64,000 nucleotides of DNA, from contig CP145419.1 of the NCBI GenBank assembly GCA_036867785.1, positions 930,001 to 994,000 of the forward strand. The letters are read 5' to 3'. Source of the stretch: Plasmodiophora brassicae (Eukaryota). The translations under genes were made by a program, and so were the position numbers. The notes beneath the pieces were generated by a model. It made no database searches. It saw only the letters and a program-made list of their open reading frames with translations, and had not been told where the DNA came from. Positions 1,173-30,083 of the stretch are shown one piece after another (the first letter of the stretch is position 1; each line of letters begins with the position of its first letter).

Positions 1173-1189
1173 CCGAACTATATATTGTT

Positions 1190-6436: not shown

Positions 6437-8414
6437 ATGGGCAAGGTGCGCGCCGCCATCAGCAACCACTGGAAGCAGACGACGTACCGGCGCAGCGAGC
6501 GCACGCTGGCCAGCGAACGGTGGCTGTTCGTCGGCCTGCCCCTGGTCCCGTTCAACCGCTGGGCGCTGATCCCGTCCGCCTTCCTCATCCAGATGTGCGT
6601 CGGCAGCCTGTACGCCTGGTCCGGGTTCAACGCGCCCAGTACGTATCGGCGCGTCGTCGTCATCGGTGGCCCCTCGCCCGTCTGACCCGGCGTGTTCGAT
6701 CGCACAGTTGAGCAGTACGTGTACGGCGTGCAGGCGGTGAACGGCCGGCCGCCCGACCTGAACATCGCTCCGGTGACGTTCTACATCGCCGTCGTCTGCT
6801 TCGGCGTGGCGGCGGCGATCCTGGGCCCCTGGACGGAGCGGCACGGGCCGCGGGCCGCCATCCACCTCGGCGCCACCCTGTTCTTCGTCGGCAACCTGAT
6901 CACGGCCGCCGGCATCTCGCTGAGGACCATCGCCCTGGTCTACGTCGGGTACGGCGTCGTCGGCGGCACCGGCCTGGGCATCGCGTACATCAGCCCCGTG
7001 TCCGTCCTGCAGAAGTGGTTCCCGGACCGGCGCGGCATCACGGCCGGCCTCACGGTCGCCGGGTTCGGCGCCGGCACCATCGTCGCCACGTGTAAGTGTC
7101 GTCGTCGTCGTCGTCCCCGACGTCGCTCGCGCCGCCTCTGACAGCACGTCCTCCCATCGGGCAGATACGCAGAAGGCGCTGATGGCGCCGATCGGCCCGG
7201 GCGGCCCGCCCACGCTCGACGTGTACGCCGTGTTCCTCGTGCTGGGCACCGCCTACTTCATGGTGATGCAGGCCAGCGGGCGCGTCCTGCGCATACCACC
7301 GCCGAATTACGCGGTCGATGGCGTCACCGTCAGCACGATCAAGGGCGCCGACGAGCTCGACGTCGACGGCGAGGACGACGACCCCGCCGGCAACGACGCG
7401 TTCCTGGACGACGATGTGCCGCCCGTGTCGCGTATCGCCGTCCCGGACGAGATCCTGTCGACGACGCTGAACAGCATGTCGCTCAGTGCGGATGCGGTCG
7501 CTGCGCCCGACGATGACGACGACGCCGACGTCGCCGAGGCGTCGACGGCGCCCACCGTCGACGCCGTCGACCCGCTGTCGATGTCGCTGACGCAGTGCCT
7601 GCTGTCGCGCCCGTTCCTCCTGCTGTATGTCGCGTTCTTCGGCAACCAGATCTGCGGCCTGCTGCTGATCTCCAAGATCCAAACGAGTACGCCCCCGCGC
7701 GTCGCGCCTGCTCTGCATCGCGATCCCCTGACCGCCCTCGTGACAGTCTCGATGACGCAGTTCGGCATGAGCGTCGACGCGGCGACGTCGGTGAACGCGG
7801 CGGTCGGCGCCGCGAACCTGTGCGGCCGCTTCCTGCTGTCGACGGCGTCGGACCGGATCGGGCGCAAGTCGTCGCTGCTGGTGTCGCTGGCCGTCCAGAC
7901 GCTCTGCATCGCCCTGCTGCTGGTCACGTTCGACGCCGAGTCGTCGTCGCTGTTCCTCGCCTGCGTCGCCGTCATCGCCTTCATGTACGGCGGCGGGTTC
8001 GGCGTCGTGCCCGCGTTCCTGAGCGACCTGTTCGGCGCGCGGCACACGGGGCCGACGCACGGCGTCATCCTGACGGCCTGGTCGCTGGCGGCCGTCGTCG
8101 GCGGCCTCCTGTTCACGTCGCTGTACAACCGGGAGACGGCGGCGCTGGGCGCGCACAACGCCCACGTCTACGACCTGAACGGGTACTGGATCCTGGGCGT
8201 CGTCGTCGTCGCCCTGCTGGTCGGCGCCTGCATCCCGGCCAACATCCGCGACCGGGTCATGCCCCGCGGCGCCGACGAGCTGTTCCGCCTGCGCCTGCCC
8301 AACGGGACGCTGGCCGTCGTCACCAGGGCGTGCGGCCTGGACACCGTCGACAAGGAGACCGAGGACGCCCAATGGAAGGCGTACGTCCGCCAGCGACGCC
8401 AGGCCATGCCCTAA
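6437..8414 (+). CDS. MFS transporter, oxalate:formate antiporter (OFA) family
   Basis: Motifs QMCVGSLYAWSGFN, GLGIAYISPVSVLQKWFPDRRGITAGL, SDRIGRK and YGGGFGVVPAFLSDLFG. Short introns near 6640-6708, 7092-7164 and probably about 7685-7746. Confidence 0.88.
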
Positions 8415-8506
8415 GAACATACGCCCCCCGTACGAACCATCGGGCCACTTTCTCGCGTCCCATTCATATCCGTCTCCCCGTCGTCCAAGCCACACAATAC
8501 AGCACG

Positions 8507-9528
8507 TCACCCGACCCGTTGCTGTGTATCCACCGTATGGGCCACCGACTCGTTCACAGCATCGCCGGTCGCCCCGAGCGCCGGTTCTCGTGCATCGGAC
8601 GCCGACCCCGCCTGGTCGTCGTCGTCAGACGACGTTGGCGGCATGTCGCGAGGTTCCTCGCATTCGGACCCGGCGGCGACATCGCTGCCGTCGTCGTCGT
8701 CGTCGTCGTCCGACGACGACATCAACAGCATGTCGCGGCGCGGCTGTCGCGTTTGCGCCAGCCAGTCGTTCTGGACGCTGATGACGTCGGCGCTGGTCTG
8801 GCACGCCTCGTACAGGTCGAACAGGTCGCTGCGGAACACAGAACGCGTCAGACCTGCAGGGAGTACGGCCGGCGCGACGAGCGCCCTGCGCGTACCCGTT
8901 GACTTGAATGAATGCGGGGCCCCAGTTGAACTTGTCCAGGATCTGCTCCGCGAGCGGGCGCTCCCCGATCAGGATCAGGGTCGCGGCGATGGCCTCGACG
9001 CAGGTCAGCTTCATCGGGCGGCCGTAATTGACCGGGTTGGCCGCGACCATGAACGGCACTACAAGACGTTGCTGGTCAGGCGCCGCCTATATAGGATGCG
9101 CGTTCGGCGGATGGACGTACGGAGGCGGTCGGCCCCGCTCTTCAGCTTGTTGAAAGGGACATTGTCCAATGCGTTCCACGAGCAGTCGATGACGCCAATA
9201 CCGCCGGCGAGCGCCACGTCACGGTCTTCCCGTGACACGGTCCGCTTGCCCTTCGGGCTCAGCACGACACCCGGCCATCGCTGGTTCAATCGCAACTCCT
9301 TCAACAGCCCTGGCAAACGGAACGTTCGTCAGCGCGCAATACACGCCGACCCAGGCAAGGCCGCAGCCGACCGAGTCGCGCCAGCTTCCTGCCCGTGCAC
9401 CGTTTCGAATCGCATTGCCCGAAATCCCACATGGCCAGCGCAATCGGGAACGCGTGCCGCACGTCCTGGCGGGCATCGCGGGCGCCTGTCGGCCCCTGTG
9501 CAGGCCGCCGTCGCTCCCTTCGTGTCAT
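8507..9528 (-). CDS. TSR3: 18S rRNA aminocarboxypropyltransferase Tsr3
   Basis: Exons encode [52 protein letters not shown] and FNWGPAF, followed by an acidic C-terminal tail. Confidence 0.95.
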
Positions 9529-9889
9529 CACGGACTGCGCGACGACGCCACGGACTCCGCACGACGGGTACATAGGACCGGTACCATCCACACTAACGGG
9601 GGACGCCCGATGCCACTCCGACCGCGTTACCTATTCCCGTGCCCGACCCGATCTGCCAGCGTCTTGGCAAGGGCGTCGTTGCCGGCGGGTGCCAGCTCCG
9701 ACTCGGGCGATTCGCCCGCCCGTAAACCTCTGCGTACACGGCGCATCGGGCCCGAGCGAGATGCAACAGCTCCAGGTGGCTGCCCGATGTATGGCGACAG
9801 TACCTCGGTGGTTATCACGCGATGATGACGTCGCTCGCGCGCGTCATATTGGGACGGATGTGGGGAATCGCGGCGATCGTTGCCCTGCG

Positions 9890-10360
9890 CTAGGCGTCCG
9901 TGTCGGCTCGTCCGCCGGCCCGCATAGCCGCCAGGTGCATCTGGACGCGCTTAACGTCGGCGGCAATGGCGTCGTCGAGCGGGAATCGGCGCAGTCGATC
10001 CGCCAGCGCCCAACCGAGAATCGGGTTGTCACCGTGGTGGACCAGGGCCGGGTCGGCTCGCAGGATGGCCAGCAGCAGATCGCCGCAGAGGAACCCGGAA
10101 TCGCCGCCCTGCTCGCAGGACAGGATCTGGCACAGTATCATCAGCGTCGACCGCATCACGTACTGCGAGACGCGGCCGTGCGCGATCAGGTCGCCGAGCT
10201 TCCGGCAGCAGGCGCCGGCCACGGCCGCCCTCGTCGAGTTCTCCTTCAGCACGTTCAGCAGGACCACGTCGGCATCGGACACCTCCAGCTCGTTGATCAG
10301 TGCGACGGCCTCGCCCGTTGTCACATGGTCCCTGGTCAGCAGGCGGCACACGGCGGCCAT
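9890..10360 (-). CDS. Hypothetical helical protein; may extend by splicing to about 9627
   Basis: Coding-like ORF beginning MAAVCRLLTRDH between TSR3 and the ZIP gene. No motif recognised. Confidence 0.45.
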   Translation of the reverse strand: MAAVCRLLTRDHVTTGEAVALINELEVSDADVVLLNVLKENSTRAAVAGACCRKLGDLIAHGRVSQYVMRSTLMILCQILSCEQGGDSGFLCGDLLLAILRADPALVHHGDNPILGWALADRLRRFPLDDAIAADVKRVQMHLAAMRAGGRADTDA

Positions 10361-10607
10361 CGAACGCCACGACCCTTCCCTGACGCAACACGTCACCTGC
10401 CGCCGCCGCGCTGCTGGTGCCAATACTGGCAACGGCCACACCGAACGCGGAGTCCGAGACGGACGATAACACAAATAGCGCCGTCACGGACACAGAAATA
10501 GCGCGCCCGGCACTGTCGGGTCGGGGGCGCCGCGAACGCCGCCGCGAATCCGCCGGCACTCGTCTCGGCCCACTGGTCGCGGCTATACGTATAGGTGGGT
10601 GATCGCT

Positions 10608-11610
10608 TCACGATTTAACGAATGCCAGCAGCAGCATGCAGTGCGACATGACGAACAGGCCGGCGAAGGCGGCCGGCGCCACGGCCCGCCCATCGTACTG
10701 GAACGCGGTCGGCAGCATGACCGTGAACGCCAGATACGTCATCATGCCGGCGACGATACCGTAGCTGGCGCCGTAGACGCGCGGGTCCAGGTCCCCTTCG
10801 ACGCCCTTCATGATTGCGTACCCGAACAGCGACCCGACCGGGCTGACCAGCCCGCTCAGCGTCCCGGCCAGGAAGCCTTTCAATCGCGACCGCGTCTGGT
10901 AGTACACGGGCAGGGCCACCGCCATGCCTTCCTGTTTCAGGGCACTCACGTCTTCACAACACACTGCGTTGACAGGATCGCGCCACCCTTACGGGGATGT
11001 TGTGCAGGCCAATGGCGAAGGCGAGCGGCAGGCCTGCCGCGATACCCGTTGTCAGGCCCATGAAGGTCGTCAAACCTTCCGGTAGGTTGTGCAACGAAAT
11101 GGCAACGCCGGTGATGATGGCAGCACGAAGCATGGCGGTCGATGGCTTCACGTCGCCGTCGTACGTCGTCAGGTTGTTGTCGAACGCGGCGGTCTCCGTA
11201 TCCCTGTCGTGCTCGACGATGATGTTCTGCAACTCGACGTCCTCGCTGACGGGAACAGGGTCCTGAAGGCGGTTGCCATACCGGGTCAGGACGCCGACCG
11301 TGATACGATCCAGCAGGTAGGTCAGGATCGCCCCGCCAAAGAAGGTTTCGACGGCTTCCAGATGGGCCAGCTGCGCGTCGGCACGCGCCGCCGCATACGC
11401 CGCCGCCGACTGCTGGATCAGCGACGCCAGGCTGACGTACAGCATGACGCCGGCGGCGAACGCCATCGACGCCGACAGGAACCGTCGGCTGAGGATCCGC
11501 GGTATGAGGACCACGCTGGCACCGACGGTCGTGATCAGGCCGGCCGCGGCGCTGATCGCCAACGCCTTGTCCAGGACCTCGCCGGACGGGCGATCCGCCA
11601 TCGACGCCAT
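10608..11610 (-). CDS. ZIP family (ZupT-like) divalent metal transporter
   Basis: AFAAGVMLYVSL, AISLHNLPEG, AIGLHNIP|EGMAVALPVY (intron about 10934-10991) and AGMMTYLAF. Confidence 0.92.
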
Positions 11611-11813
11611 CGGTCAAAATGGTCCTCGACGCATCGGCGCCCAATTTTGTCAGGCGCCGCTCCAGTCACGACTCGCGCGGTTGCCGCGACGGGCACCGAT
11701 CCGACCTGCACCGGACGCGCGCTGTACGTCGTGCGCCACTGCGCCGCCACGGACGCCGTACCGTGAACTACCACCGTTGCAGTCGCGGACAGCGCACGTG
11801 CGGCTTGTCTGGT

Positions 11814-13319
11814 TTAGGACGACAGTGGGACAATGTAGGCGACGATGGCGGCGTAGTGCAGCGAGGAGCCCAGCAGGACCCAGAGGTGCCAGACGATGTG
11901 CATGGCGGGTGTGGTGGCACCCTTCACGAGGAAGGCGACGCCGACCGTGTACGCGATGCCGCCGTGCAGGACGAGGAGCATGGCGGGCTGCGGGATCAGC
12001 CCCGACCGGACAATGGGGACCCCCGCGATGACGCACATCCATCCCATGGCGAGGTACAGCGCCGTCGACAGCCAGTCGAAATGCTTGTGCCCGCGCATGA
12101 ACGTCGTCAGGAAGATGCCGACCAGGGCCAGCAGCCAGATCCCCAACAGCATCGGGTTCGCGATCTCGGGTCGCGACCGCAACGATATCACGAGGAACGG
12201 CGTGTACGACCCGGCAATCAGCATGAACACGCTGCCATGGTCGAGGTACTTGAAGAAGCGCTTCGCGGCCCGCAACTTGAACAGCGAGTGGTACAGGGTC
12301 GAGCTCAGGTCTGTGCCGGCCAGACGTTAGACCCCCGGCGGTGGCCACGTGCGAACGAGAAGGAATCCGGCGTACACGTCAGGCACAGTGCGAACGCGTA
12401 CGGGACGGTGCCGACGAGGTTCCGCGTGTCCCGCGTTTGCCAGGCGCGCCGAATCAGGAACCAGGACCCGATCATGGCGAACAGCAGGCCGACGCCGTGC
12501 GTGACCGAGTTGAGGATCTCGTGGACGTACAGGTTGCTCTCGGTATCAACTGGTGCATTCCTGGGTCAAACATGGACGCTGGCGATGGGCGCAACGCAAC
12601 GCCGGCAGACATACCCTCGAAGGCGCACCCGACCGACTGGATGGCAAACACGCTGGCCATGCCCAGCTGGTTGGACGACAGGTCCAGGGATTTGAGTCGC
12701 GACGCCGGATTCCGGAGGACATCTGCGGCGGAAACGGCGCGGGTCAGCACCGCCGACGGAACCGCCCCCGACGTGAGCGCGCGCACACCCAATATCATCG
12801 ACGTCAGCGAGCCGCCCAGGTGGCATCGGCGCAGGTTGACGTGCTCGAGCGGGCAGTCGCCCGTGGCCATGTACTCGAGCAACGGGGCCGCCGCCTGCGG
12901 TCCAATACGGGATCCCTGTACGTATCGTACGTCGATCAGGCGCGCGTTGCCGGAGACGCGGTGGCGGTGCGCACCTCCAGGTCGAGGCGGACGACGGACG
13001 GCAGGCGGCGCAGGCAGTCGACGAGCAGGCCGGCAACGGCGACGCCGAGGCGCGCGTGCGCCAGGTGCAACTCCTGGACCTGCGTCGCCAACGGCAACGC
13101 CTGCAGCAGCGGCAGCAGATCCAGCGCCTGCAGGTGCCGGTCCGGGACGATCGCCCTGCTGCCCATCAGCAGCGACGCCGCGATGCCTGTTGCGGGTGGC
13201 CGTCAGCGGCACCCCATCGACGACGGCAACGGCAACGACAACGGACCAGCGTTGACGTCGACCTTGTACCGGTGGCACTGCTCAACGTAGACGCTGGCCG
13301 CATCGGACACCTTCGCCAT
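11814..13319 (-). CDS. N-terminal LRR (RI-like) domain fused to a hemolysin III/PAQR 7TM domain
   Basis: LRR motifs VQELHLAHARLG, LEHVNLRRCHLG and LKSLDLSSNQLG. Intron 12614-12550 joins CAFE|VDTESNLYVHEILNSVTHG in frame. The PAQR metal-binding motifs YHS, LDH and H-x-x-W-H follow. Confidence 0.8.
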
Positions 13320-13393
13320 CGACGACCGCCGGTCCCCGACCGCGCTCAAAATAGCAATGCGCGCGCCCAGCAGCATCATCATCACCATCATCA

Positions 13394-14242
13394 TCATCGT
13401 TGCCAGCGCGCGATGACGTCGTCGAGGAAGCGCTGAACGCGCGGCGACCGACGCGTGCCAGCGCGCAGGACGATGGCGATCGATGCGATCCAGGCGCGAC
13501 TGTCGTCGTCCTCGTCGCCGGCCGCCGTACAGGCCGACAACGCCGCACACATGGCGTCGTCGAACGACGCGCCGTCGTCGTCGTCGTCGTCGTCCGGCGG
13601 GGCACGCCGTTGCCGGGCGACCGCGGCGCCGGCCAGGATCGGCAGGGCGTAGCGGCGCAGGAGCGCACCGGAGCGCAGGAGCGCGCCGACGGCCCGCACG
13701 ACGCTCGCGTCGATCCGGACGGTCGGCGGGGCGTCGTGCCGGCGCAGGGCGTCGGCGACGACGGCGCAGGCGAGCACGCGCGTCTCGACGGAGAACGCGA
13801 ACCCGTCGTCGCGGACGACGTCGAGCGTACGCGACGGGGCTGCACCCGACAGGATCCGCTCGACGACGCCGGCGCCGCCGACGTGGACGCACCGCAGCAG
13901 GCAGTGCAGGACGTACCCGGCGGCGTCGTCGTTGTCGTCGCCGACCTGGACGGGCAGGACGTGGCAGAGCGCGTCGGCGACGCCGCGGACGCTCCAGCAG
14001 GGGCGGCGGTCCGTCCAGAGCGCGGCCGACAGCGTCCGACAGGCGGCGGTCGCCAGGTCGCGCGACGTCGTGCTGGCCGCGATCCACAGCAGCTTCTGGA
14101 GATGGTCGTCGGCGAGCGCGCCGATCGGCAGGGCGGGCACGACAACGCCGAGCACGGCGGGGTCGTACGACGCCAGCAGCAGGTCGCAGACATCGACGGC
14201 CCGCCGCTCGTCCACGCCGTCGTCGGCACCGCCGTCGCCCAT
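13394..14242 (-). CDS. Hypothetical ARM/HEAT-like helical protein
   Basis: Intronless ORF of about 282 aa, rich in Leu/Ala/Val amphipathic helices. Family not recognised. Confidence 0.5.
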   Translation of the reverse strand: MGDGGADDGVDERRAVDVCDLLLASYDPAVLGVVVPALPIGALADDHLQKLLWIAASTTSRDLATAACRTLSAALWTDRRPCWSVRGVADALCHVLPVQVGDDNDDAAGYVLHCLLRCVHVGGAGVVERILSGAAPSRTLDVVRDDGFAFSVETRVLACAVVADALRRHDAPPTVRIDASVVRAVGALLRSGALLRRYALPILAGAAVARQRRAPPDDDDDDDGASFDDAMCAALSACTAAGDEDDDSRAWIASIAIVLRAGTRRSPRVQRFLDDVIARWQR

Positions 14243-14597
14243 CGCACGCACTTGCTGATTGTACATACAATATATGACACGGCGCCCTAACCCTGCAGCT
14301 CCCGCGTGACGCGACTATATGACTGGTCGCCCTAATCTCCGCCGACGTACCCAATTGGTATAGGTACCGTCATCTCGACGAGGCAGCCCTGTGCTGTGTG
14401 ACGCGCGACGAACACTGGCGTGACCCGCATCAGGGAATATCTCGGGCGAGGCGCTACTCAGCCACTCATGTACTTCACTCTGTGACATCGAGCACTGGCG
14501 AAACGCACGTTGGAGAAGAATATCTCGGGTGAGACGCTCTGGAGGCGGTCGGTCCCAGTGTATCCCTGTTGAGGACAGCGACGTCGCCATTCCAAAG

Positions 14598-16217
14598 ATG
14601 GGCGCTCGCGTCGGTCTGCTTCTCATCGTCGTGCTCGGCATCGCCGTCGCCCAGGAGTGCACGGAGCCGCCTCGGGATGACCGGCGGTGCGGGGCAGCGT
14701 TCGGCAATGCACGGTGCAGGCCCGGGCAGTGCTGCTCGCGGGTATGCACGTTCCGTCGCAGGCGCGCGCCGTTCGCTCCGGCTGACCCGTGTCGCGCCAG
14801 AACGGCCGCTGCGGGTCGTCGTCGTCGCATTGCAACCCCAGATCGCGATGCGCGCGAGAACCGGCCGTCGTCTCGGAGGCTGCCGTTTGTTCGGCGCCGC
14901 CCTTGACGTCAGGCCGGTGCGGTCCCGATTTCGGCAACGCCGGGTGCAGCGATGGCGAATGCTGTTCACCGGTACGCGATCGCCGCGTGTCTCGTCGTGT
15001 CTGACCGGCCGCTGACGACATCGTAATCGCAGAGTGCCTGGTGCGGAACGACGCCTGCCCATTGCAATTCGCGGTCCCTGTGTCCAGCGGCAACGACGAC
15101 GCCGGCTGTCCAACCACAGCGCCAGCAGCACCAGCATCAGCGACCAAGTCGACGACAGGCGTCGAGTTCGGACGGTCCGATCCGCGCCATGTCGTCGTGT
15201 GGCAACAGCAGGCGCATGGTGGCGCTGACGTTCGACGACGGCCCGACGCCGGGGGCCACCGAGCCCATCCTGGAAGTCCTCGCGGACCACAACATCAAGG
15301 CGACGTTCTACCTCACCGAGGACAACACCGGCCCGGCCGGCTGCCCGCTGATCCGGCGCCTGCTTCGCGAAGGGCACATGATCGCGCATCACAGGTCGGT
15401 CGCGGCGTCATCCGTCACCAGAACAGACGCTGACACATCCACCGGCGCAGCAAGTCGCACCCGCAGTTCAACCTGCCATCGACGAACCTTCGCCGGGAGA
15501 TGGAATCGCCGGTGGCCTGGATCGCCGCGTGCGGCGTCGACCCGGTAAGCTGCATTGCAGCGTGCGCCGTCGCTGTCTGCCGCGCCGTGCCGACCCGTGC
15601 CGCGTGACAGGGGCTGGTCACGCACTTCAGGCCGCCGTACGGGCAGCTGCGCGATGATCAGGTCCAGGAGATATCCGGGCGCATGGGTAGGCGACGTTAT
15701 GGGCGCTGCTAGGCCCCATCCACTGCTGCCTATAACGCGTATCGCAGGGTTCGTGATCGACCTGTGGAACGTGGAGACGATGGACTCGGATGACGGCAAC
15801 ACGAACCAGGAGTCGATCGAGAACGTGAAGCGCGCCATGCGCACCATTGGTATGGGCGTGTCGCCGTTGTCGTTTACCGCCCGGTCGTCTCTCATGTCAA
15901 CGCTGCGAACAGGAGTGGGCAACAGCGCCGTTGTACTCATGCACGACTACGCGGAAGGGCCCCGGATCGTCGACGCCCCAGGTTGGTAGTGTACTCTCGC
16001 CCGGGCGACGCGGCGCTGTCTGACGGCCGGCACAGACGGGAACGCGCTCGTGCAGATCATCGAGTACTTCCGGTCGCTCCGGTACAGGTTCGTGCGGATG
16101 GACGAGTGCTACGCGCAGTGTGACGCGCCGAGGTGCTTCGGCAACGGCGGTCCCACCCACTGGGCCAGCGTGTTCGACCCCGACCCCAACGGCGTCGGCA
16201 CGTTCCCCGCCGAATAG
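14598..16217 (+). CDS. Secreted chitin deacetylase: two CBM18 (hevein) modules plus a CE4/NodB domain
   Basis: Signal peptide MGARVGLLLIVVLGIAVAQ. Hevein-like RCGAAFGNARCRPGQCCS|..CG....C and RCGPDFGNAGCSDGECCS|..WCG....C. CE4 motifs ALTFDDGP, HS..H, FRPPY and VLMHD. About seven short introns. Confidence 0.9.
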
Positions 16218-16344
16218 CCGGCCCCGACGCCTGTTCCAGAACGAAATACACGTACGTCGTACAGCGGGGAGCGGTGGGCCCCCAATCCAGGGGGGATCAA
16301 CGTCGTATTCGCAAATGGGAACAATAAGGTGTGCACCGGCCGGG

Positions 16345-18846
16345 CTACCGGCTGGCCCCGCCCGCAGACGCCGCCCGGGACGCCTTGGCGGCCTCCTCCT
16401 CGATCTTGATCTCGGCCTTCTCGATCAGCATGTCCAGGTGCGGCTTGACGTGCGGCCACAGGCGCACCAGGGCGGCCTTGCAGGCGTACCCGGAGTTGAT
16501 GCCGACGCCCATCGAGTACATGGGCCCGAAGCCCCGGTCCCAGAACGCCACCAGCATCAGCAGGTCGGGGCCGGAGCGGAACGCGCCCTTGGTCGCGTTC
16601 AGGCGGCACCTGCGGAAACGGGTGCGGCGGTCAGAGCGAAACAGGAGCGGGACAGGGGCGTCACGCGCACGTACCGCCAGAACTTGAGGCGGAACTCGGC
16701 GTCGATTCGCGACTTGAGCATGCAGAGCGCGTTGATCGGCTTCTTGGACCACTGCGTCTCGAACCAGGGGCGCAGCGGCGTCGAGTCCCAGGGCGTGTAC
16801 GGCTCGAAGTGCAGCAGGCCGGGGACCGGGTCCGGCTCGGGCATCGACTCGGCGTGCTGGGGCGTGACCAGCCCCTCGATCGAGACCGAGTCGGCCAGGG
16901 ACGCGCCCCGAACGTACCGCGACAGGAACGACTGGCAATTGCCCAGCGACTCGGTCGACGACATGGGCGCCTTGGCATCGTCCGCCATGGCGCGCGCGTC
17001 GTCATCCTCGGCAATGGCGCCGTCTTCCTCCGCAATGGCCCCGTCTTCCTCCACGATGACACCACCGTCCTCCTCCTGCTTGTCGACCGCCATGCGCGAC
17101 GCGCCGTTCCCGTCGGCATCGGAATCCAGGTCGCCGTACAGGTCGACGACGGCCGGGACCGCGGGCGCAGGAGGGCGGCTGTCGTTCGCTCTCGCGGGCG
17201 CAGGCGCCGGCGGTGTCCCAGGGTCGTTCGTGGCGCCCTCCTCGATGACCTCGATGCGCGACGACGACACCGACAGGACGCGCTGTCGATTCGACACGAT
17301 CGTCGCGATCGCCTTCTTCAGCGACCGGTCCGCATCGCGAACGTCGTCGGCGTGCATCTCGGTCGAGCGGCGCGGGCGCTTGCGCAGCGACGTGACGGGC
17401 GCCGGCTGCATCTTGTCGATCCGGACGTTGTAGTACGCCAGGACGCGCGCCGACACGTCGTCCTTGGCGGCCTTCTTGCTCGGCTTCGGGTCGCCCTTGA
17501 TCACGACGGGCGGGTCGCTGCCGGGCATCGTGAAGATGCCCCGGAAGGCGCCGGACAGGGTGACGTCCTCCGACGACGTCACGTTGACAACGTCGACGGT
17601 CTTGGCGGGGAACGCAATCCTCCTCGTCATCTGCAGCCATTCGTGCAGCAGCGCGCTGGGCGGCTTCTGCAGCGGCTCGTTCATCAGCGCCTGCGCTGGC
17701 GCCGGCGCCATCGTCGTCGTCGTCGTCGTCGACACCACGTTCATCGCGGTCGGGGCGACGGACGGCGCCGGCGGCGCTTCCTGCGAGTGCCGCGTGAACG
17801 CCAGCGACATGTCGACGTCCAGGTGCTTCAGGACCATCTTGGCGACGGCGTCGCGCGCCTGCTTCTTGGACGGGAACGCGTCGCTCCGCATGACGAGGTC
17901 GGGGCGCAGGCCGGGCACGTCGCGACAGTCGACGCCGTCGGGAACGGAGAACTCGGCGACGAACTGGGACGCGCCGAGCACGCCCGACTGCGTCCCGTCG
18001 ACGACCCAGGTCGTGATCGTCCGTGCCGGGTACGCCATGCGGACGCGCGACTGAAGGAACTCGAACAGCGCCTGCGACGGGTTCTTGTGCCCGATCACTT
18101 CGCCGGCCGGCGCGCTGCCGCTGGCGAACGACGCGTACAGCTTGTCGGTGCTCGTGTGGGCGCTGCTCGTCACCGCCTCCTCGATGGCGTCCAGGATCTC
18201 GTACGTGACCGTCGCCAGGCGCGGCGTCAGGTGGATCTCCTCCTGCGGCTGCGTCTTGGAATTATCGCGGAGGAAGCACCGCCCGATGATGGCCTCGACC
18301 GCCGTACCCTGCGCGACGCGCCACGTCAGAACCAATACACATCCAGTGGGACGAGGGCGTCACGACAGGAACGCGGACTGGCTCGTCATCAGAGCCCCCC
18401 ACCCCACCCCGGTTCGTGTCGCATTCGACATAATGCTATGTCTGGATGGGCGGCCCAGACATAGGACATTGCCGAATGCCGAGTGGGGTGCACAGCGACC
18501 GGGACAGGGCGGGGTCAGCCACCCCAACTACGCCCGAGCATACCTTTTCGTGGATGGACGCCCCTTCCCATTCGTGCTGCGACAGGTACCTTGGGACGAC
18601 GAACGGGTGGCCGATCAGCGCCAGCGTCTCGTTGCTGACCATGGTGCCGCGCAGCATGGTCAGGCGCCCCTCGCTCTTGGCGTCGTACCGTTTCAGCAGG
18701 CGCCAGTACAGCATGATGTCCAGGAGCTTGTCGCCGATGAGCGCCTCGACCTCGGCGGTCCCATCGCCGCCCAGCGACCGCAGGCGGATCGGGTCAGATT
18801 GCTCCGGCGCGACCACGGTCATCGCCGGCGACGCGGACAGATCCAT
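16345..18846 (-). CDS. RNase III (Mini-III-like) domain protein with two clear and one degenerate dsRBD
   Basis: EALIGDKLLDI, EGRLTMLRGTMVSNETLA and K|GTAVEAIIG across intron 18543-18309. dsRBD-like segments: KNPSQALFEFLQ...FPSKKQARDAVAKMVL, KPPSALLHEWLQ...PSKKAAKDDVSARVL and KKPINALCML...GVGINSGYACKAALVRL. Confidence 0.78.
18400..18490 (-). ncRNA. Candidate intronic pre-miRNA-like hairpin
   Basis: Paired blocks 18436-18445/18455-18464 (10 bp perfect), 18432-18435/18467-18470, 18421-18429/18471-18479 (one G-U on the transcribed minus strand) and 18400-18407/18483-18490. Confidence 0.45.
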
Positions 18847-19101
18847 GGCAACGACGACGGACGACGACGCCGCCAACTGCGTTCTGCTCCCAGCGAGCGA
18901 CGACGAGGCGCGGCACTGGCGCGCACTTTCCGTGCCCGGCGCATTCTGTGTGCGTCAGTCACGGCATTATTGTCAAGTGGCAGCAGCCCACCGGCTGCCC
19001 CCGGGGCATGATGCATCGGGAACATCGGTCGTCGGTCTGCAGGCGGCGGCGATGGTTTTTGTCATTTCGGTTTTTGGTGAGCGGGAGGGTGGGCGACGGG
19101 G

Positions 19102-21909
19102 ATGGCGGCGTCGCTGGGCGGCGCGTCGGCGTTCCTGGCGGACCTGCCGGGGTCGTCGATGGTGCTGGCGCTGCAGGACCTGTCCGTCGTCGTGGACGCG
19201 GCCGCGATCGCCTGGGTCGTGTTCAACCTGCGCGGCCGGGCCGTCAACGTTGTCAACACGGACCTGGTCGCGCAGGCGCAGCAAGTTCGGTGCCAGGCGT
19301 GTTCGCCGAATGCGACAGTCGGCTCTGACGCGCTGCCATTCGGCAGGCCTTCGCCAGGCTCGACGACCTGATCAAGCAGCGCGCAGTCAAGCTCGTGATG
19401 TTTGCGTCGGGCAAACCGGGAACGTTCATAGCCGGTGCGGCAGTCGCAGCCAGTTACTGGGCAGGTCGCTCATCTGGAACGCGTCATTACAGGGGCCGAT
19501 ATTGACCAAATCTACCCAAACGTCGACCTGAATGCTGCCGTCGAGGTTTGCTGTCCGCTGTCCGACCCCGCAGGTGCTGTTCTCTGACCTGCCTATTAGG
19601 CTTCAAAGAGCGGCCAAGCGACGTTCGCGAAGATCGCACAGCTTCCCGTTGTCACGGTTGGTGCCTCAGTCGGATCGCGGCTCCCCATCGTCGGTTCACA
19701 GAATGATCTGCTAGGTGTGTGCGATTAACGGCGCCGCGCTAGGCGGTGGTCTTGAACTCGCCCTGGCGTGCGATTATCGCGTCGTCTGGGACTCTCCCAA
19801 GGTCCAGCTCGGACTGCCCGAAGTTAAGCTCGGCCTGCTTCCTGGAGCCGGCGGCACGGTCCGGTTGCCGCGCCTTGTGGGCCTGCAAGCGGCACTAGGC
19901 ATGATCCTGGCCGGCGGGTCGATTCGCCCTCAGAAAGCGTTGGCAATGGGGCTGGTCGATGAGATCGTCTCATCGGGCCCCGGAGTCCTTTCTGAGGCTG
20001 GGTTCTTTCTTGGCGTCCGAGACATTGCCATCCGCATGATTGACGGAAACGTATCGAAGCGCTCCGATACGCCTGCCTCCTCACTATCGTTTCAGGTTTT
20101 CTTCGCCACCAAGACGTTGATTGCGCGAATCCTGATCGAATTTATGTCAGGATCGTTTCTTGAATGACACCTCGGTGGGTCGTTGGGTCGTTGCGCGTCA
20201 AGCTGCTGCGTCGCTGGATCGGATGACGCGTGGCCAGTACCCTGCACCGTACCTGGCGCTGGACAGCGCCGTGCACGGTATGTCTGTTGACCTGCAGGCA
20301 GCGCTGGACTATGAGGCAGCGCTGTTTGGGCGACTGGCTGTGTCCCCTGAATCCAAATCGCTGATCGCGCTCTTTCGCGCTACTGAGAACAACAAGAAAC
20401 GGGGAGCGTCCAGTGCTGCACCTCGGACTCGTGTACGCAAGGTCGGCATCATTGGCGCTGGCGTGATGGGCGCTCAAATCGCGGGCATCTGCATCGGCAG
20501 AGGGTTCCACGTTTATCTTCGTGACATCAATCCGTCCATCGCTGAGAATGGCCTGCGTTTCGCCATTGAATCCGTGAGGCGGCCGCCCCCGAATATTAAA
20601 GACGTACGGTTTGCAGTGCGGCGCTTTATACGTCCAGATTCTGACGCCATTCGTTGTAGTTGATTTCTGCTGGGACTTCCATCGACGGGTTTCGAGACTG
20701 CGACGTTGTCATTGAAGCGGCCGTCGAGAGAATGGACCTCAAGCAGAAAATCCTCGCTGACGTGGAAGACGTGCTGTCTCCTCGTGCGGTGTTTGCAACG
20801 AACACGTCATCGCTGTCCATTGACACGCTGTCGAACGGGGCGCGGCGTCCCGGGCAAGTCTGCGGCATGCATTTCTTCAACCCGGTGCAGAGGATGCCGC
20901 TGGTGGAGGTGATCCGTGGCAAGAAATCGAGCGTACGGTCGTGTTCCAGGTTGGCCATGCCTATGTCTTACCAGTGCCATGTTTGTCAGAAAGAAGCTAT
21001 CGCGCTCGTGTACAAGCTCGCTCTTGACTTGGGCAAGACGCCCTGCGTCTGGTAGGTGGATGCAAGGCGATCCTTCGCCGAACCGTGCTGACCGGTCGAA
21101 CGTAGCCGCGATGGGCCGGGCTTTATCGTGAACCGCATCCTCGGGATCTATATGAACGAGGCGGGGATCCTGGCGATGGAGGGGACGCCGATCGCTGCGA
21201 TCGACAAGGCGCTACTCGATTTCGGCATGCCAATGGGCCCATTCCGCCTCATGGATGAAGGTTGCACGATGTCTCGTTCCGATTCAGCACGGGCTGATTT
21301 CGTGACTGTCTAGTTGGCCTGGACGTCGCCGCTCACGTCGGGCCAATCCTGGAATCCGGCCTCGGTGCCAGGTTCAAACAGGTCGGCCCATTTGCCGGCA
21401 TTCTTCGCGGGAAGGGTGACGGCAAGAGACTGGGCAAGAAGACCGGTGCAGGGTTCTACCTGTACGACAGGAACGGCAAGACCGACCCATCGCGTCTCAA
21501 TCCGTCAATGATGGACGAGGTGGAACGTGCCACTAACAAGCCGCGTCATGTGTCGTCAAGCGCAGACGTCGTCGACCGGTGCATATTGGTGGCTCTCCAG
21601 GAAGCGTGCCACATACTTCAGGATGGCATTTGCGGCAGCGCGGAAGAGCTCGACCTTGCCATGGTGTTTGGCACCGGTTTCGCCCCGTTCCGAGGTGGGC
21701 TACTGAACTACGCCGATCAACTCGGCGCCAAAGAAGTCGTCCAGCGCCTCGCTGCGCTGTCAGAGAAGGTCAGTGCGGTTAGGTTCAAGCCGCACGCCAC
21801 GCTGACAGAGATGGCTGCCAACGATGGCAAATTCTTCCCGGACCGTCCACTTGGGACGACTCCTGTCGGCCCATTGCCGCGTTCTGCGATTCGCATAAAC
21901 AAACTATGA
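19102..21909 (+). CDS. Multifunctional beta-oxidation enzyme (enoyl-CoA hydratase / 3-hydroxyacyl-CoA dehydrogenase), HADHA/FadJ-like
   Basis: [86 protein letters not shown] and GFAPFRGG over many exons. Ends in -NKL. Confidence 0.93.
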
Positions 21910-22947: not shown

Positions 22948-23737
22948 CCTCGTAGAGCGTCGACCACGACGTCAATTAGCCATCATCGATCAGCTAACCG
23001 TACCTAACCTGACGGCTCCCACGAAAACGAATATGGAAATAGGGCATTCAGGGCATAATTAACGAGGAGATCGACAGACTGGCCAAACGAGCGACAAAGA
23101 AGTGCTTGAGAGGTACCGCACACGTCCTTCCCCTGACGTCATTTAAACCCCACCCGCGATGGATGGAAGCTGAACGATATGAAAGCAAGTGAAAAGACTA
23201 CTCGGCCAACCGATATCCGATACGTACCTTGATAACGCATGCGTTTATAAAATATCGCGCACTGAGAATGTTAACGGCACAGTTCGTACGTCAACCATAG
23301 TCCTCATAGGAACAGATCGCGTCGCCGACCAGAGCGCTGTCACCGCGCGAGGTCGCGTACCCGGCTCTGCGATCCCTCTCATTTGTCGGTCAGTGAAGGG
23401 CGCCATCGATCAACGCAGGCAAGGTCAGTCTTGCTGATCACGAACGTGCAGAGATCCTCAGCTGGCAACGTCTCCGCGAGGAGTTCCCCCTTACACTCGT
23501 CCTATGAGGAATGTGGTGATGGCGTCATGGCGTCATGGCGTCTACGTAATCAGCCATCAACGTCCAGCAGTATGCGATAGGATGTTGACGGTATCGTATT
23601 GCGCTTTGCGGGCATTCGATTTCCGAATAATGATGTACGCGAAACAAAACGCGCACGCAGCCTGCCGCTGGGTTTGCGGACTGTCTGCAAGTCAATTATT
23701 GCACGCGCGGCGCATTTCTCATTCGACCAGACTGAGT

Positions 23738-24535
23738 ATGAACGCTAGCAGCGTCGTTGTTGCTGTTGTGGCTGTGGCCGCAGCAGCAGTCGTTCTCGTC
23801 GGTGCAATGCCAGCTGGAGGCCAATCGAGCCGCCCCGGTCGGGCATCTACGACGTCGCATGGGCGAGGCCAGCCTGTTCTTATTGACCAGAACCAATGGT
23901 ATCAGGAAGCCGCGAACCTCTGGGTTCGCAGAACCGATGGCGCCAAGTACGTCGGCGATGTCATCCGGCAAGCGGATGGCGGAGGCGTGGTTCCGCATGG
24001 AGTTGGAAAGTGCACAATTCCTGGCGTCGTGTCGTACACAGGATCGTGGCGTAACGGATACCAGCACGGGAACGGCGGACTTGTTTCGGACGGCAGCAGG
24101 CCGTTTGCCTATCATGGCATGTTCAAAGACGGCCTGCCGTTCGGGTCCGGTGTCTTCAGTTCTGGATCGGAAGGATGGCGTTACCAAGGACACTTTGTGA
24201 ATAACAAGCGTCATGGTTACGGCGTGTTGGCCGATTGCGAAGGGCAACTGCTTAAGGGCCAATGGCGTCTCGGTCGGTTGGATGGTCACGGAAAGGTCCT
24301 GCTCTCCGACGGACGTACCCTCGAAGGAGAGTTCTCCGAATGGGATCCTCGCATCAACGTTCTGGAAGGGTCATTCCGTGGCAAGGTGACCGACATCGCC
24401 GGACTGCAGATTACGCAGCTCAACAGGAACACCTCGAAGAGTGACATTGTGAACGCGAGGAACGTTGTCCGAAAACGCCACCGTGCTGACGACGTCGATG
24501 GCGACAGTACTGGTGAACCCTGGTTGACACTCTGA
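23738..24535 (+). CDS. Secreted MORN-repeat protein, paralog 1
   Basis: Hydrophobic signal (MNASSVVVAVVAVAAAAVVLVGA), MORN units YTGSWRNGYQHGNG, YHGMFKDGLPFGSG and YQGHFVNNKRHGYG, and tail RKRHR. Intronless. Confidence 0.88.
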   Translation: MNASSVVVAVVAVAAAAVVLVGAMPAGGQSSRPGRASTTSHGRGQPVLIDQNQWYQEAANLWVRRTDGAKYVGDVIRQADGGGVVPHGVGKCTIPGVVSYTGSWRNGYQHGNGGLVSDGSRPFAYHGMFKDGLPFGSGVFSSGSEGWRYQGHFVNNKRHGYGVLADCEGQLLKGQWRLGRLDGHGKVLLSDGRTLEGEFSEWDPRINVLEGSFRGKVTDIAGLQITQLNRNTSKSDIVNARNVVRKRHRADDVDGDSTGEPWLTL

Positions 24536-27919: not shown

Positions 27920-28735
27920 ATGACGTCGTCTGGAAACATCATCGCAGTCGTTGCGGTGGTCGTCGCCGCTGTCGTCACCAACGTCAGTGCGGCAGGCCGG
28001 CAGGGCCGGATGCGTTCTACCCATCAGGACAAGGCCCCGCCCAGACCATCCCGGCCCGTTATAACCATTGACCCGCAGCATTGGCATCGTGTGGGCGCAG
28101 ACTGGACCCACAACGCTAGGGGCTATACGTACAATGGAGAGGTCATCCAGCAACGCAACGGTGCCGTCATGGCCCCGCATGGATGTGGCCGGTTCACTGT
28201 TCCCGGCAAATGGGTTTATAGCGGACAGTGGCAGAACGGACGGCGCCATGGGGAAGGCAAGTATATGCAGGCCGACGGATCATACAGTTACCATGGCAGG
28301 TTGAAACATGGTAACCCGTTCGGATACGGCGTCGCCATCCATGGGGATGGGTGGCGATACGAAGGGCACTGGGTCAACGGCAAGCGACACGGCCAGGGGA
28401 AGTGGACCGATACGGAAGGGCAGGTCCTGGAAGGCCAGTGGCACCAGAACCGGTTGCACGGTCGCGGTCGCGCCACTGGGCTGGCCGACGGACGCTCCCT
28501 CGATGGCCAGTTCACCAAGTGGGATCCTGACGTTGCCGGAGGAACGTTCCGTGGCAGGGTGTTCGACGCCAGGGCACAGCTGCTGATCCGCTACACCGAC
28601 TGGACTTCCAAGCGTGACACGTTGCACGCGCTAGCCGCTCCTCGGAGACTCCAACGTGATGAGAATAATGCCGACGGTGGACAACCTGGCGGCCGGTCAT
28701 TCCCGAAGCGTGCTCGGCTGGCAATTTCGTCTTAG
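27920..28735 (+). CDS. Secreted MORN-repeat protein, paralog 3
   Basis: Signal MTSSGNIIAVVAVVVAAVVTNVSAA, MORN units YSGQWQNGRRHGEG and YEGHWVNGKRHGQG, and tail RRLQR...PKRARL. Confidence 0.9.
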   Translation: MTSSGNIIAVVAVVVAAVVTNVSAAGRQGRMRSTHQDKAPPRPSRPVITIDPQHWHRVGADWTHNARGYTYNGEVIQQRNGAVMAPHGCGRFTVPGKWVYSGQWQNGRRHGEGKYMQADGSYSYHGRLKHGNPFGYGVAIHGDGWRYEGHWVNGKRHGQGKWTDTEGQVLEGQWHQNRLHGRGRATGLADGRSLDGQFTKWDPDVAGGTFRGRVFDARAQLLIRYTDWTSKRDTLHALAAPRRLQRDENNADGGQPGGRSFPKRARLAISS

Positions 28736-29968: not shown

Positions 29969-30083
29969 CCGCTCTCGCCAAGCTCACGGGGTGGGGCGAC
30001 CACGCCACCCATGAAATACAGATCCGTCGACTGCCTGGATAGATAGCTTCATCATACACGGTCAGAATGGGGGGGTCTGGCGG

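Follow-up and report, generated by a model that had tools for sequence, protein, structure and literature searches.

The window, a 64,000-nucleotide stretch of the Plasmodiophora brassicae genome (contig CP145419.1, positions 930,001 to 994,000), carries a three-exon gene whose product combines a single RNase III domain (RIIID) with two double-stranded RNA binding domains (dsRBDs) and a further conserved C-terminal domain (Table 1). Contigs from four of four public sequencing runs, drawn from four studies (one contig per run), skipped the introns of 235 and 65 bases exactly, and the skipped stretches had CT..AC ends on the plus strand. The RNA nature of the four runs is itself a guess, and expression rests on the contigs that lack the introns. 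Because the introns are missing from the contigs of all four runs, the join of 18544 to 18308 that the earlier note had proposed is present in RNA-derived assemblies. The join rebuilds the peptide HEKGTAVEA, and the same motif is uninterrupted in the relatives P0003 and P0004. Moreover, the 733-residue product is identical to a P. brassicae protein record (P0041) and 99% identical to PBRA_007775, which is annotated just as "RNase III domain-containing protein." A literature search by gene identifiers found no paper. The word "undescribed" in the earlier note holds for the function and fails for the gene, for which the public record PBRA_007775 exists. We conclude that the locus is a real, expressed P. 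brassicae gene.

Table 1. Features of the RNase III gene, in positions of the window
Feature	Position	Strand	Description
Whole coding gene	16345..18846	-	Three exons, 733-aa product, ATG at 18846, TAG stop
Exon 1	18544..18846	-	Residues 1-101; N-terminal two thirds of RNase III domain
Intron 1	18309..18543	-	235 nt, GT..AG; interrupts RNase III domain; predicted to fold as long hairpin
Exon 2	16675..18308	-	Residues 102-645 plus two bases of codon 646
Intron 2	16610..16674	-	65 nt, GT..AG
Exon 3	16345..16609	-	Residues 646-733 plus TAG stop
RNase III catalytic domain	18132..18789 (intron 1 included)	-	Residues 20-160; Pfam, AF2 model, fold match
Signature helix A35-L-I-G-D39-K-L-L-D43	18718..18744	-	Ala for canonical Glu; catalytic Asp kept
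Second catalytic motif G102-T103-A-V-E106-A107	18291..18308	-	Thr for canonical Asp; catalytic Glu kept
dsRBD1	17796..18101	-	Residues 171-272; NPSQALFEFLQ helix, SKKQARDAVA motif
dsRBD2	17424..17672	-	Residues 314-396; PPSALLHEWLQ helix, SKKAAKDDVS motif
Basic cluster S-L-R-K-R-P-R-R-S	17364..17390	-	Residues 408-416; putative nuclear localisation signal, by eye
Acidic, predicted disordered stretch	16974..17264	-	Residues 450-546; pLDDT <50
Conserved C-terminal domain	16360..16958 (intron 2 included)	-	Residues 552-729; TPWDSxxLRxWF motif, dsRBD-fold core

Intron 1 is predicted to fold with a minimum free energy of -110 kcal/mol (z -2.55), and its hairpin, at 18421 to 18479, has arms of 25 nucleotides that are 80% complementary. 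A 16-base string of the hairpin was absent from the supplements of PMC13547706, and inspection by eye of the mature sequences Pb-miR001-026a and 032-225 in Table S8 of that study placed none of them within it. An Rfam search of positions 16200 to 19100 returned mir-598 at 20.8 bits against a threshold of 69, on an (ACG)n repeat, and the match was treated as chance.

The catalytic domain was recognized by both profile and fold. Residues 35 to 115 matched the Pfam family Ribonuclease_3 (PF00636) across the exon junction at 33 bits, above the cut-off of 27, and exon 1 by itself scored 30 bits. In the AF2 model, pLDDT exceeded 90 across most of residues 20 to 160, and the best fold matches were RNA-bound bacterial RNase III enzymes that covered the RIIID and a dsRBD, namely, those of Aquifex aeolicus (2nug_A; Z 13.0, rmsd 4.0 Å, 201 residues aligned) and Escherichia coli (7r97_A; Z 12.6). 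E. coli RNase III was also the top Foldseek match (E 1.4e-5). Pfam and the AF2 model each indicated one RIIID per chain, compared with the two of Dicer and Drosha. No PAZ or helicase was found among Pfam families at E <= 10, and the AF2 model resolved the remaining chain into dsRBD folds or disorder. In NCBIfam, TIGR02191 reached 24.8 bits, far under its cut-off of 166, and no Mini-III model was matched. ESM Atlas returned generic RNase III/dsrm clusters with scores below 0.9, which were taken as leads only. Thus, the single RNase III domain and the absence of PAZ and helicase domains reported in the earlier note were both recovered.

RNase III enzymes fall into a few classes, and outside Mini-III the E/D/D/E catalytic quartet is regarded as almost universal. 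Six canonical domains conformed when aligned with the P. brassicae protein, with E in 6/6, D in 6/6, D in 5/6 (one N), and E in 6/6. In the same alignment, A35-L-I-G-D39 corresponded to canonical E-F-L-G-D and G102-T103-A-V-E106 to A-D-x-x-E, which bears out the substitutions seen in the earlier note. Two of the four canonical carboxylates are therefore replaced, Glu by A35 and Asp by T103, and D39 and E106 are retained. The replaced and the retained residues are both conserved among the RIIIDs of the family, with A35 in 32/32, D39 in 31/32, D43 in 32/32, T103 in 29/32, and E106 in 30/32. Mini-III homologues presented the same states, with A in 29/29, D in 29/29, an acid at +4 in 28/29, T in 28/29, and E in 29/29; because these 29 sequences were gathered by protein similarity and not by motif, the sample is unbiased. 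The Bacillus ORF used as the Mini-III reference matched the Mini-III structure 4oun with an E value of 9e-81. Mini-III is reported to be an active dsRNA nuclease, the activity of which is abolished by the substitution E106Q (PMC5141509). As the two remaining carboxylates of the P. brassicae protein are kept across Rhizaria, a fungus, and green algae, the catalytic site is predicted to work.

The family to which the protein belongs is sparse and patchy: of 1.84 billion representatives searched, 39 proteins reached E <= 0.001. A second, word-based homologue search added only two more members and two canonical enzymes. The A/D/T/E pattern is conserved among 32 relatives, which belong to Rhizaria, the blastoclad fungus Blastocladiella, green algae, and other eukaryotes. 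One relative, P0018, has an RIIID of this type fused to a DEAD/ResIII helicase and a dsrm/Dicer_dimer-type domain. By eye, the N terminus of the short paralogue P0008 is rich in Arg and resembles a presequence, and the shorter relatives have Lys/Arg-rich tails. When profiles were compared by hhalign, the family aligned to canonical RNase III with a probability of 98.6% (E 1e-15, score 94) and to Mini-III with a probability of 93.1% (E 3e-7, score 46). Likewise, a profile search of the PDB returned the RIIIb domain of DCL3 with an E value of 1.3e-8 and Mini-III (2gsl) with an E value of 0.94. A tree of the family was built together with Mini-III, two bacterial Rnc proteins, two canonical enzymes, and one two-RIIID protein, leaving aside P0021, the C-terminal half of which was unalignable, and all short fragments. 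The Mini-III stem amounted to 3.5 changes per column in total, against 0.79 plus 0.54 between the family and the canonical enzymes. As judged from these profiles and the tree, the RIIID outside its catalytic columns has more in common with canonical RNase III and Dicer than with Mini-III, and the Mini-III likeness claimed in the earlier note stands for the catalytic columns, where it agrees with the retrieved Mini-III sequences, and not for the rest of the domain. We take the P. brassicae protein to belong to an old RNase III subfamily of eukaryotes that has yet to receive a name.

Both dsRBDs retain the helix-1 E/Q and the KKxA(K/R) RNA-contact motifs in their sequences. For dsRBD1, the family profile matched solved dsRBDs (DRB2, E 4.7e-5) and the fold matches included HYL1 (Z 8.9) and dsRBD2 of DCL4 (Z 8.8), and dsRBD2 was homologous to dsRBD1 by hhalign (probability 98.1%, E 9e-14, 81 columns). 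Pfam dsrm remained below its cut-off on the 733-residue protein, with DND1_DSRM the best match (E 0.023), and single-sequence searches of the PDB gave 0 matches for dsRBD2 and 2 unrelated matches for dsRBD1 (E ~1), none of them a dsRBD. By eye, no GPxH-type motif was seen in the β1-β2 loops. Since Pfam dsrm lies under its cut-off, the two dsRBDs that had been called clear are so at the level of profile and fold only. Basic clusters that resemble residues 408 to 416 also occur in P0003, P0007, and P0004. The linker noted as acidic holds 26 D+E and 6 K+R in its 97 residues.

The C-terminal domain has an α-β-β-β-α core, and this core is 79% identical to that of P0003 and 48% identical to that of P0004. 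When the domain was taken from a model of the relative P0006, its best fold matches were dsRBDs (Z 7.0 to 7.4, where a Z of ~7 falls in the range of common arrangements), and Foldseek returned dsRBD1 of Loqs (E 7.3e-4). Its sequence resembled neither dsRBD1 nor dsRBD2 (hhalign probability 0.3 to 1.3%), consistent with the degenerate third dsRBD of the earlier note, the observations of which were confirmed as a whole.

A single RIIID would be expected to pair with a second copy, and a homodimer was indeed predicted with a score of 0.59 (0.59, 0.59, and 0.66 in separate runs), compared with 0.00 for the best of three controls, although likeness to, or memory of, RNase III homodimers already solved may contribute to the score. 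The mark used for dimers was reached, among microbial proteins, by 21 of 30 solved as same-chain pairs and by 0 of 23 single chains; among eukaryotic proteins, it was reached by 17 of 29 pairs and by none of 30 single chains, but of the 7 that had no older relative of solved structure, just 1 reached it. At least 90% of contacts were common to the runs, with a partner pLDDT of at least 75. The predicted interface comprised the signature helix (residues 28 to 63) and residues 113 to 137, as in solved RNase III dimers.

P. brassicae is reported to lack Dicer and to possess PbDRL, a Drosha-like protein with two RIIIDs that generates 21-nucleotide RNAs in vitro and is required for microRNA (miRNA) accumulation (PMC13547706; PMC4471660). 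PbDRL alone dices dsRNA to 21 nucleotides in vitro, and its knock-down reduces miRNA levels (PMC13547706). As PbDRL dices alone and its knock-down lowers miRNA, the known pathway needs no second nuclease. According to the same study, no partner of PbDRL was found among two three-dsRBD proteins, Pb09092 and Pb07475, and the mechanism is not fully understood (PMC13547706). The supplements of PMC13547706 contained no sequence, coordinates, or primers named Pb09092 or Pb07475. In the available text of the two P. brassicae silencing studies, only the two-RIIID protein is counted, and neither the gene described here nor its short paralogue, PBRA_000886, is mentioned (PMC4471660, PMC13547706). With PbDRL already present as a dicing enzyme that makes 21-nucleotide RNAs and supports miRNA accumulation, the proposal that the protein substitutes for Dicer or Drosha is unproven and less needed than the earlier note assumed. 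The remainder of its interpretation fared better, as the architecture, the Mini-III catalytic motifs, and the predicted homodimer were retained.

The protein is not Mini-III, Dicer, or Drosha, and it is very unlikely to be mL44. On balance, we lean toward an active dsRNA endonuclease that works as a homodimer, probably in the nucleus. The protein would resemble class 1 RNase III in that its single catalytic domain pairs with a second copy of itself, and such self-pairing would set two active sites facing one dsRNA helix. The two homologous dsRBDs would grip the RNA duplex, and the C-terminal domain would probably make protein contacts, either in self-association or with a partner. Each active site keeps D39 and E106, with Ala and Thr in place of the other canonical Glu and Asp, and because this constellation is shared with the dsRNA-cutting bacterial Mini-III enzymes, cleavage is predicted to be Mg2+ dependent and directed at dsRNA. 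Candidate substrates are small-RNA precursors beside PbDRL, or pre-rRNA and snoRNA as for Rnt1 and RTL2.

One account keeps the same mechanism and assigns it to nuclear RNA maturation unrelated to silencing, such that the enzyme would cut pre-rRNA spacers, snoRNA, or mRNA hairpins in the manner of Rnt1 and RTL2. We consider it plausible, if not the expected outcome. The order of an RIIID followed by dsRBDs, the class 1 RNase III as best structural match, the basic cluster after dsRBD2, the tails of the shorter relatives, and the coverage of dicing by PbDRL agree with it, as does the precedent of RTL2, which is nuclear and processes pre-rRNA (PMC8708148). The patchy and sparse distribution is unlike that of a universal rRNA-processing factor, and its poor fit to an essential housekeeping enzyme also weighs on the dsRNA endonuclease reading that we prefer; moreover, the domain fusion of P0018 lies closer to silencing-type machinery. 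A somewhat unlikely alternative is that the protein binds dsRNA without cutting it, as a scaffold or cofactor, for example as a partner of PbDRL or an Argonaute. DGCR8, Loqs/TRBP, and R2D2 serve Drosha and Dicer in this way, and the C-terminal domain resembles protein-binding dsRBDs, with matches to Staufen dsRBD5 (Z 7.1), STAU1 SSM-RBD5 (Z 7.0), Loqs dsRBD3 (Z 7.0), and TARBP2 291-365 from the Dicer complex (Z 6.9), although all of these lie within the range of common arrangements. A scaffold would further accommodate the partner of PbDRL that was not found, the mechanism that is not fully understood (PMC13547706), and the loss of two of the four canonical metal-binding carboxylates, which likewise counts against the predicted catalysis. 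What speaks against a scaffold is the near constancy of D39, E106, and T103 and the invariance of A35 and D43 over very deep divergence, in the same constellation as active Mini-III. A decayed RNase III domain would be expected to lose such residues.

The more ambitious notion of a homodimeric "mini-Dicer" with a Mini-III-type site, a third kind of small-RNA nuclease acting beside or downstream of PbDRL in the Dicer-less, RdRP-less P. brassicae, strikes us as improbable. If it were true, the enzyme could, for example, carry out the second cleavage of hairpin precursors or act on long dsRNA, its C-terminal domain could dock to PbDRL or an Argonaute, and its own intron-1 hairpin could be a self-regulatory substrate. 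More doubtful still is a cutter of single-stranded RNA only, like R3B2 of the Mucorales, which has the same domain order of one atypical RIIID and two dsRBDs (PMC8136814) and which the lack of Dicer in P. brassicae might favor. The constellation of R3B2 differs, its reported occurrence is confined to the Mucorales, the active-site state of the P. brassicae protein equals that of dsRNA-cutting Mini-III, and no R3B2 chain was among the 42 PDB profile matches at E <= 1, an absence from the list that does not amount to exclusion. We give hardly any credence to an RNase III-like protein of structural or organellar type, as mL44 is, or to a true organellar descendant of Mini-III. Such an origin would draw on the shared RIIID-plus-dsRBD fold of mL44 (yeast 3j6b_5, Z 10.1; mouse and human, Z 9.7 to 9.9), on the Mini-III fold match 4oun (Z 10.1 over 101 residues, with Mini-III outside the Foldseek top 50), on catalytic columns equal to those of Mini-III, and on the N terminus of P0008. 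By eye, however, the N terminus of the 733-residue protein contains acidic residues, unlike a presequence; mL44 superposed with an rmsd of 9 to 12 Å, compared with 4.0 Å for bacterial RNase III; and the hhalign, PDB profile, and tree distances to Mini-III exceeded those to canonical enzymes. Moreover, mitoribosomal proteins accounted for 0 of the 42 PDB profile matches at E <= 1, and the orthology to mL44 about which the earlier note had cautioned was not found.

A Mini-III-type site (A/D/T/E) exists also in eukaryotic, dsRBD-bearing proteins, and its constancy across Rhizaria, a fungus, and green algae suggests that the reduced site represents a lasting alternative and not a stage of decay. 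Because the mechanism of PbDRL is described as not fully understood, its partner was not found, and the gene goes unmentioned in the available text of both studies, the gene is a testable candidate for a missing component. Should it prove only a nuclear RNA-maturation enzyme, it would still represent a new subfamily of RNase III and be of moderate interest.

Among known systems, mL44 resembles the P. brassicae protein in joining an RNase III-like domain to a dsRBD fold, but the P. brassicae protein is more than twice as long and retains the catalytic Asp and Glu. R3B2 of Mucor shares one atypical RIIID and two dsRBDs, and it is described as a homodimer with N52/E56/E113/D116 that acts in a Dicer-independent, non-canonical RNAi pathway (PMC8136814). 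Its N/E/E/D positions contrast with A/D/T/E in the P. brassicae protein. The yeast Dcr1-type Dicers (Kluyveromyces polysporus Dcr1 and Pichia stipitis Dicer) likewise combine a single RIIID with dsRBDs, form homodimers, and lack helicase and PAZ domains. They were matched by profile (7dey, E 0.0015; 3rv0, E 0.074) and by Foldseek (7dey, E 4.3e-4; 3rv0, E 1.3e-2), a similarity not above that to bacterial RNase III. Dcr1 retains the canonical catalytic residues.

The class 1 enzymes (Rnc, Rnt1/Pac1, and RTL1/RTL2) come closest in architecture, with one RIIID followed by one or more dsRBDs (one RIIID and two dsRBDs in RTL2), and they gave the best structure and profile matches; a homodimer through the signature helix, as in this class, is predicted for the P. 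brassicae protein. The P. brassicae protein differs from class 1 in that the canonical Glu and Asp are Ala and Thr, a GG(D/N)G motif replaces the AFTHxSY-type N-terminal helix, and the chain is extended by a long acidic linker and the conserved C-terminal domain. Mini-III (MrnC, class 4) comes closest at the active site, with Ala at -4 and an acid at +4 of the catalytic Asp and Thr at -3 of the catalytic Glu, and the single RIIID is expected to homodimerize in both. Mini-III is reported to consist of the catalytic domain alone (PMC5141509, PMC4357697), with an extra helix α5b and a short α5b-α6 loop that replaces RBM4 (PMC4357697). The P. brassicae protein, in contrast, adds two dsRBDs and a third domain of dsRBD fold, and at its central motif, EGxxTxxRxxxVSNxxLA, it agrees with canonical RNase III and Dicer rather than with Mini-III.

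Contigs from four public runs, which belong to four studies and are not recorded as RNA, were aligned to window positions 16300-18900, and each run yielded one gene-spanning contig, about 2.3 kb long (3.4 kb in run X14), from which exactly 235 and 65 bases were missing and which otherwise showed no differences. The simplest reading of contigs that lack introns and break at splice sites is that they derive from mRNA. Because the contigs of all four runs skip both segments at splice-site ends, the cDNA join of 18544 to 18308, set as a check on the gene by the earlier note, is present. No in-frame ATG occurs upstream of 18846 within the open frame. The 733-aa translation is 100% identical to the public protein P0041 (XXQ36725.1) and 99% identical to PBRA_007775 of P. 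brassicae, which the records name only "RNase III domain-containing protein" or "hypothetical protein." A "(mitochondrion)" tag in one record name was rejected as evidence of location, as other P. brassicae proteins carry the tag too. Separately, an (ACG)n repeat encodes six consecutive Thr residues in this sequence but three in PBRA_007775, so that its length differs between isolates; the repeat also drew spurious contig pieces and a sub-threshold Rfam match.

Pfam analysis of the protein indicated a single Ribonuclease_3 domain at residues 35 to 115 (33 bits against a cutoff of 27) and found no PAZ domain, no helicase, and no above-threshold dsrm domain, in keeping with the earlier report that no PAZ or helicase domain is visible. 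An AlphaFold2 model was built from 34 aligned relatives (mean pLDDT, 70), and residues 9 to 267 of the model superposed best on RNA-bound bacterial RNase III (Aquifex aeolicus, Z 13.0, rmsd 4.0, 201 residues aligned; Escherichia coli, Z 12.6), followed within the superfamily by Dicer, Drosha, Mini-III (Z 10.1, 101 residues), RTL4, and the mitoribosomal protein mL44, which matched at a Z of about 10 but with an rmsd of 9 to 12 Å. Chain DD of PDB entry 9ya0, a Toxoplasma pre-conoid ring protein, also matches the modelled RNase III domain (Z 10.6, 155 residues), which suggests an RNase III-like fold inside a cytoskeletal assembly.

Features of the RNase III gene and its surroundings (window coordinates) and of its predicted product (residues)
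Feature	Position	Strand	Remarks
RNase III gene	16345-18846	-	ATG at 18846; TAG stop
Exon 1	18846-18544	-	gene model
Intron 1	18543-18309	-	235 nt; GT..AG
Intron-1 hairpin arms	18421-18445 / 18455-18479	-	25 nt each; 80% complementary
Exon 2	18308-16675	-	gene model
(ACG)n repeat	17712-17729		Thr run
Intron 2	16674-16610	-	65 nt
Exon 3	16609-16345	-	terminates with TAG
Polysaccharide (chitin-type) deacetylase fragment	15027-15548	+	Polysacc_deac_1, E 1.7e-13; convergent with gene 3' end
Enoyl-CoA hydratase	19715-20167	+	ECH_1, E 9e-25; divergent from gene 5' end
MORN-repeat ORF	23438-24535	+	
RNase III catalytic domain (RIIID)	residues 20-160		confident in AlphaFold2 model
Two alpha-beta-beta-beta-alpha domains (dsRBD1, dsRBD2)	residues 171-272 and 318-393		AlphaFold2 model
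Disordered acidic middle	residues 400-546		one helix within; AlphaFold2 model
C-terminal domain	residues 552-729		confident in AlphaFold2 model; core again alpha-beta-beta-beta-alpha

The dsRBD1 part of a profile of 27 relatives matched solved dsRBDs (DRB2, E 4.7e-5), dsRBD2 matched the dsRBD1 profile (98.1% probability, E 9e-14), and both retain the helix-1 E/Q and KKxA(K/R) motifs in sequence. The C-terminal domain, modelled on the relative P0006 (56% identical over that part), also found dsRBDs as its best fold matches in a Foldseek-independent search (DCL3, Z 7.4; DCL4, 7.3; Staufen dsRBD5, 7.1; STAU1 SSM-RBD5, 7.0; Loqs dsRBD3, 7.0), and Foldseek agreed (Loqs dsRBD1, E 7.3e-4). These Z values are only moderate, and in sequence the domain resembles neither dsRBD1 nor dsRBD2; thus, the "degenerate third dsRBD" proposed earlier holds as a statement about fold and not about sequence. 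After the RIIID, the C-terminal domain is the best-conserved part of the protein, its core sharing 79% identity with the relative P0003 and 48% with the Blastocladiella protein.

Active-site columns were compared with those of Mini-III. A search with a degenerate version of the Mini-III motif gave 120 loci from Bacillota and cyanobacteria, including a Bacillus halotolerans ORF that matches (E 9e-81) the Mini-III of B. subtilis, whose structure is solved. That set is biased by the pattern, and therefore 61 genomes of the same phylum were searched with the Mini-III protein itself; 53 matched, and columns were counted in the best 29 matches other than the query. Four positions before the catalytic Asp, Ala occurs in 29/29 Mini-III and 32/32 RIIIDs of the gene's family, versus Glu in 6/6 canonical domains. 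The catalytic Asp is present in 29/29, 31/32, and 6/6, respectively, and the catalytic Glu in 29/29, 30/32, and 6/6. Four positions after the Asp, Mini-III has Glu (27/29) or Asp (1/29), the family has Asp (32/32), and canonical domains vary; three before the Glu, Thr occupies 28/29 Mini-III and 29/32 family domains, versus Asp (5/6) or Asn (1/6) in canonical ones. The column counts bear out the Mini-III-type signature described for this gene and extend it to the whole family. According to the available text of PMC5141509, Mini-III is an active dsRNA nuclease killed by E106Q, and the reduced A/D/T/E site is thus compatible with catalysis.

Outside the catalytic columns, the domain follows canonical enzymes, for example in an EGxxTxxRxxxVSNxxLA stretch, where Mini-III differs. 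Consistent with this difference, hhalign placed the family nearer to canonical enzymes (98.6%, E 1e-15, score 94) than to Mini-III (93.1%, E 3e-7, score 46), and the family profile matched the DCL3 RIIIb domain (E 1.3e-8) and bacterial RNase III (9e-6) but Mini-III 2gsl only at E 0.94. A maximum likelihood tree was built from 53 domains, and in it a single branch sets off each of three groups: the family with its 31 rows (support 95/86), the Mini-III domains (100/100), and the canonical enzymes (92/84). The Mini-III stem spanned about 3.5 changes per column, versus the 0.79 plus 0.54 that separate the family from the canonical enzymes. Profile comparison, profile search, and branch lengths agree, and on these sequence comparisons we conclude that the domain is not a Mini-III. 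The A/T state is more simply explained by convergence on a canonical background; shared ancestry of the state is the less simple alternative. The tree is unrooted and holds three groups, any two of which could be sisters.

When 1.84 billion representatives were scanned exhaustively with HMMER, 39 proteins reached E <= 0.001, with named sources P. brassicae (two members), Blastocladiella britannica, Mesostigma viride, and Cymbomonas tetramitiformis. The second P. brassicae member, P0008 (PBRA_000886, 230 aa), has an RIIID without dsRBDs, an architecture similar to that of Mini-III, and an Arg-rich N terminus that resembles a mitochondrial presequence; two fragments, P0029 and P0035, resemble orthologues of it. 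The Blastocladiella member, P0004, is full length with the C-terminal domain included. This fungal homologue, on a contig of 8377 nt, shares 58% identity with the rhizarian protein over the RIIID and 48% over the C-terminal core, which is high for such distant lineages; strong constraint, transfer of the gene, or contamination could account for it. Two fragments filed as hypothetical proteins of Beta vulgaris, P0007 (KMS94145.1) and P0029 (KMS94195.1), lie on contigs only 894 and 902 nt long and are closely related to the two paralogues of P. brassicae. They probably come from a plasmodiophorid that infects beet roots, such as Polymyxa, and contaminated the assembly. The remaining members lie on eukaryote-like contigs, the majority with one RIIID and one dsRBD. 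In P0018 (1059 aa, Logan contig), an N-terminal RIIID precedes ResIII/DEAD helicase, Helicase_C, and a C-terminal dsrm/Dicer_dimer-type domain, an order permuted relative to Dicer and with a single RIIID. The C-terminal domain is confined to orthologues of the gene (P0003, P0004, P0006, and P0007).

Two copies of residues 15 to 165 were predicted to pair, with a score of 0.59 versus 0.00 for the best control, contact agreement between runs of at least 90%, and pLDDT of at least 75. The pairing mark was reached by 21/30 solved homodimers and 0/23 solved monomers from microbes, by 17/29 from eukaryotes but 1/7 without an older solved relative, and by 0/30 single chains. The predicted interface, the signature helix plus residues 113 to 137, matches that of known RNase III dimers. 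Since structures of those dimers are already solved, the pass shows likeness to them, not binding.

We lean slightly toward an active homodimeric dsRNA endonuclease, a reading drawn from the conserved A/D/T/E site, which an active enzyme also has, from the class-1 fold in its RNA-bound-like arrangement, from the intact contact motifs of the two dsRBDs, and from the predicted canonical dimer. Weighed against that conserved site, the main rival, in which the protein is a non-catalytic dsRNA-binding partner, seems rather unlikely. A basic cluster conserved after dsRBD2, read by eye, suggests a nuclear protein. The available text of PMC13547706 and PMC4471660 describes two Argonautes in P. brassicae, no Dicer, no RdRP, and one Drosha-like protein with two RIIIDs, PbDRL. 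According to the former, PbDRL converts dsRNA to 21 nt in vitro, its knockdown lowers the level of a miRNA, and two three-dsRBD proteins did not bind it in yeast two-hybrid assays. The same available text of both papers does not mention the RNase III gene, and no publication turned up in a literature search on its identifiers. The protein may act in silencing or in RNA maturation.

Intron 1, much longer than intron 2, folds into a long hairpin (minimum free energy, -110 kcal/mol; z -2.55; 0/200 shuffles as stable). Such a structure within an intron of an RNase III gene might give rise to small RNAs or serve as a substrate for self-regulation; the hairpin had no counterpart among the published mature miRNAs in the available part of their listing. 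The gene sits in the G+C-rich first 20 kb of the window (65-71% in 1-20000); G+C is mostly 55-62% in 20001-64000 but returns to 65% in two stretches, 28001-30000 and 42001-44000.

The protein departs from several known classes in defining features: from Mini-III in having dsRBDs and in lying closer to canonical enzymes, from Dicer and Drosha in its single RIIID without PAZ or helicase, and from canonical class 1 in missing the full catalytic quartet. For these reasons, we assign it to the RNase III superfamily as a new variant distinct from Mini-III, Dicer/Drosha, and canonical class 1.
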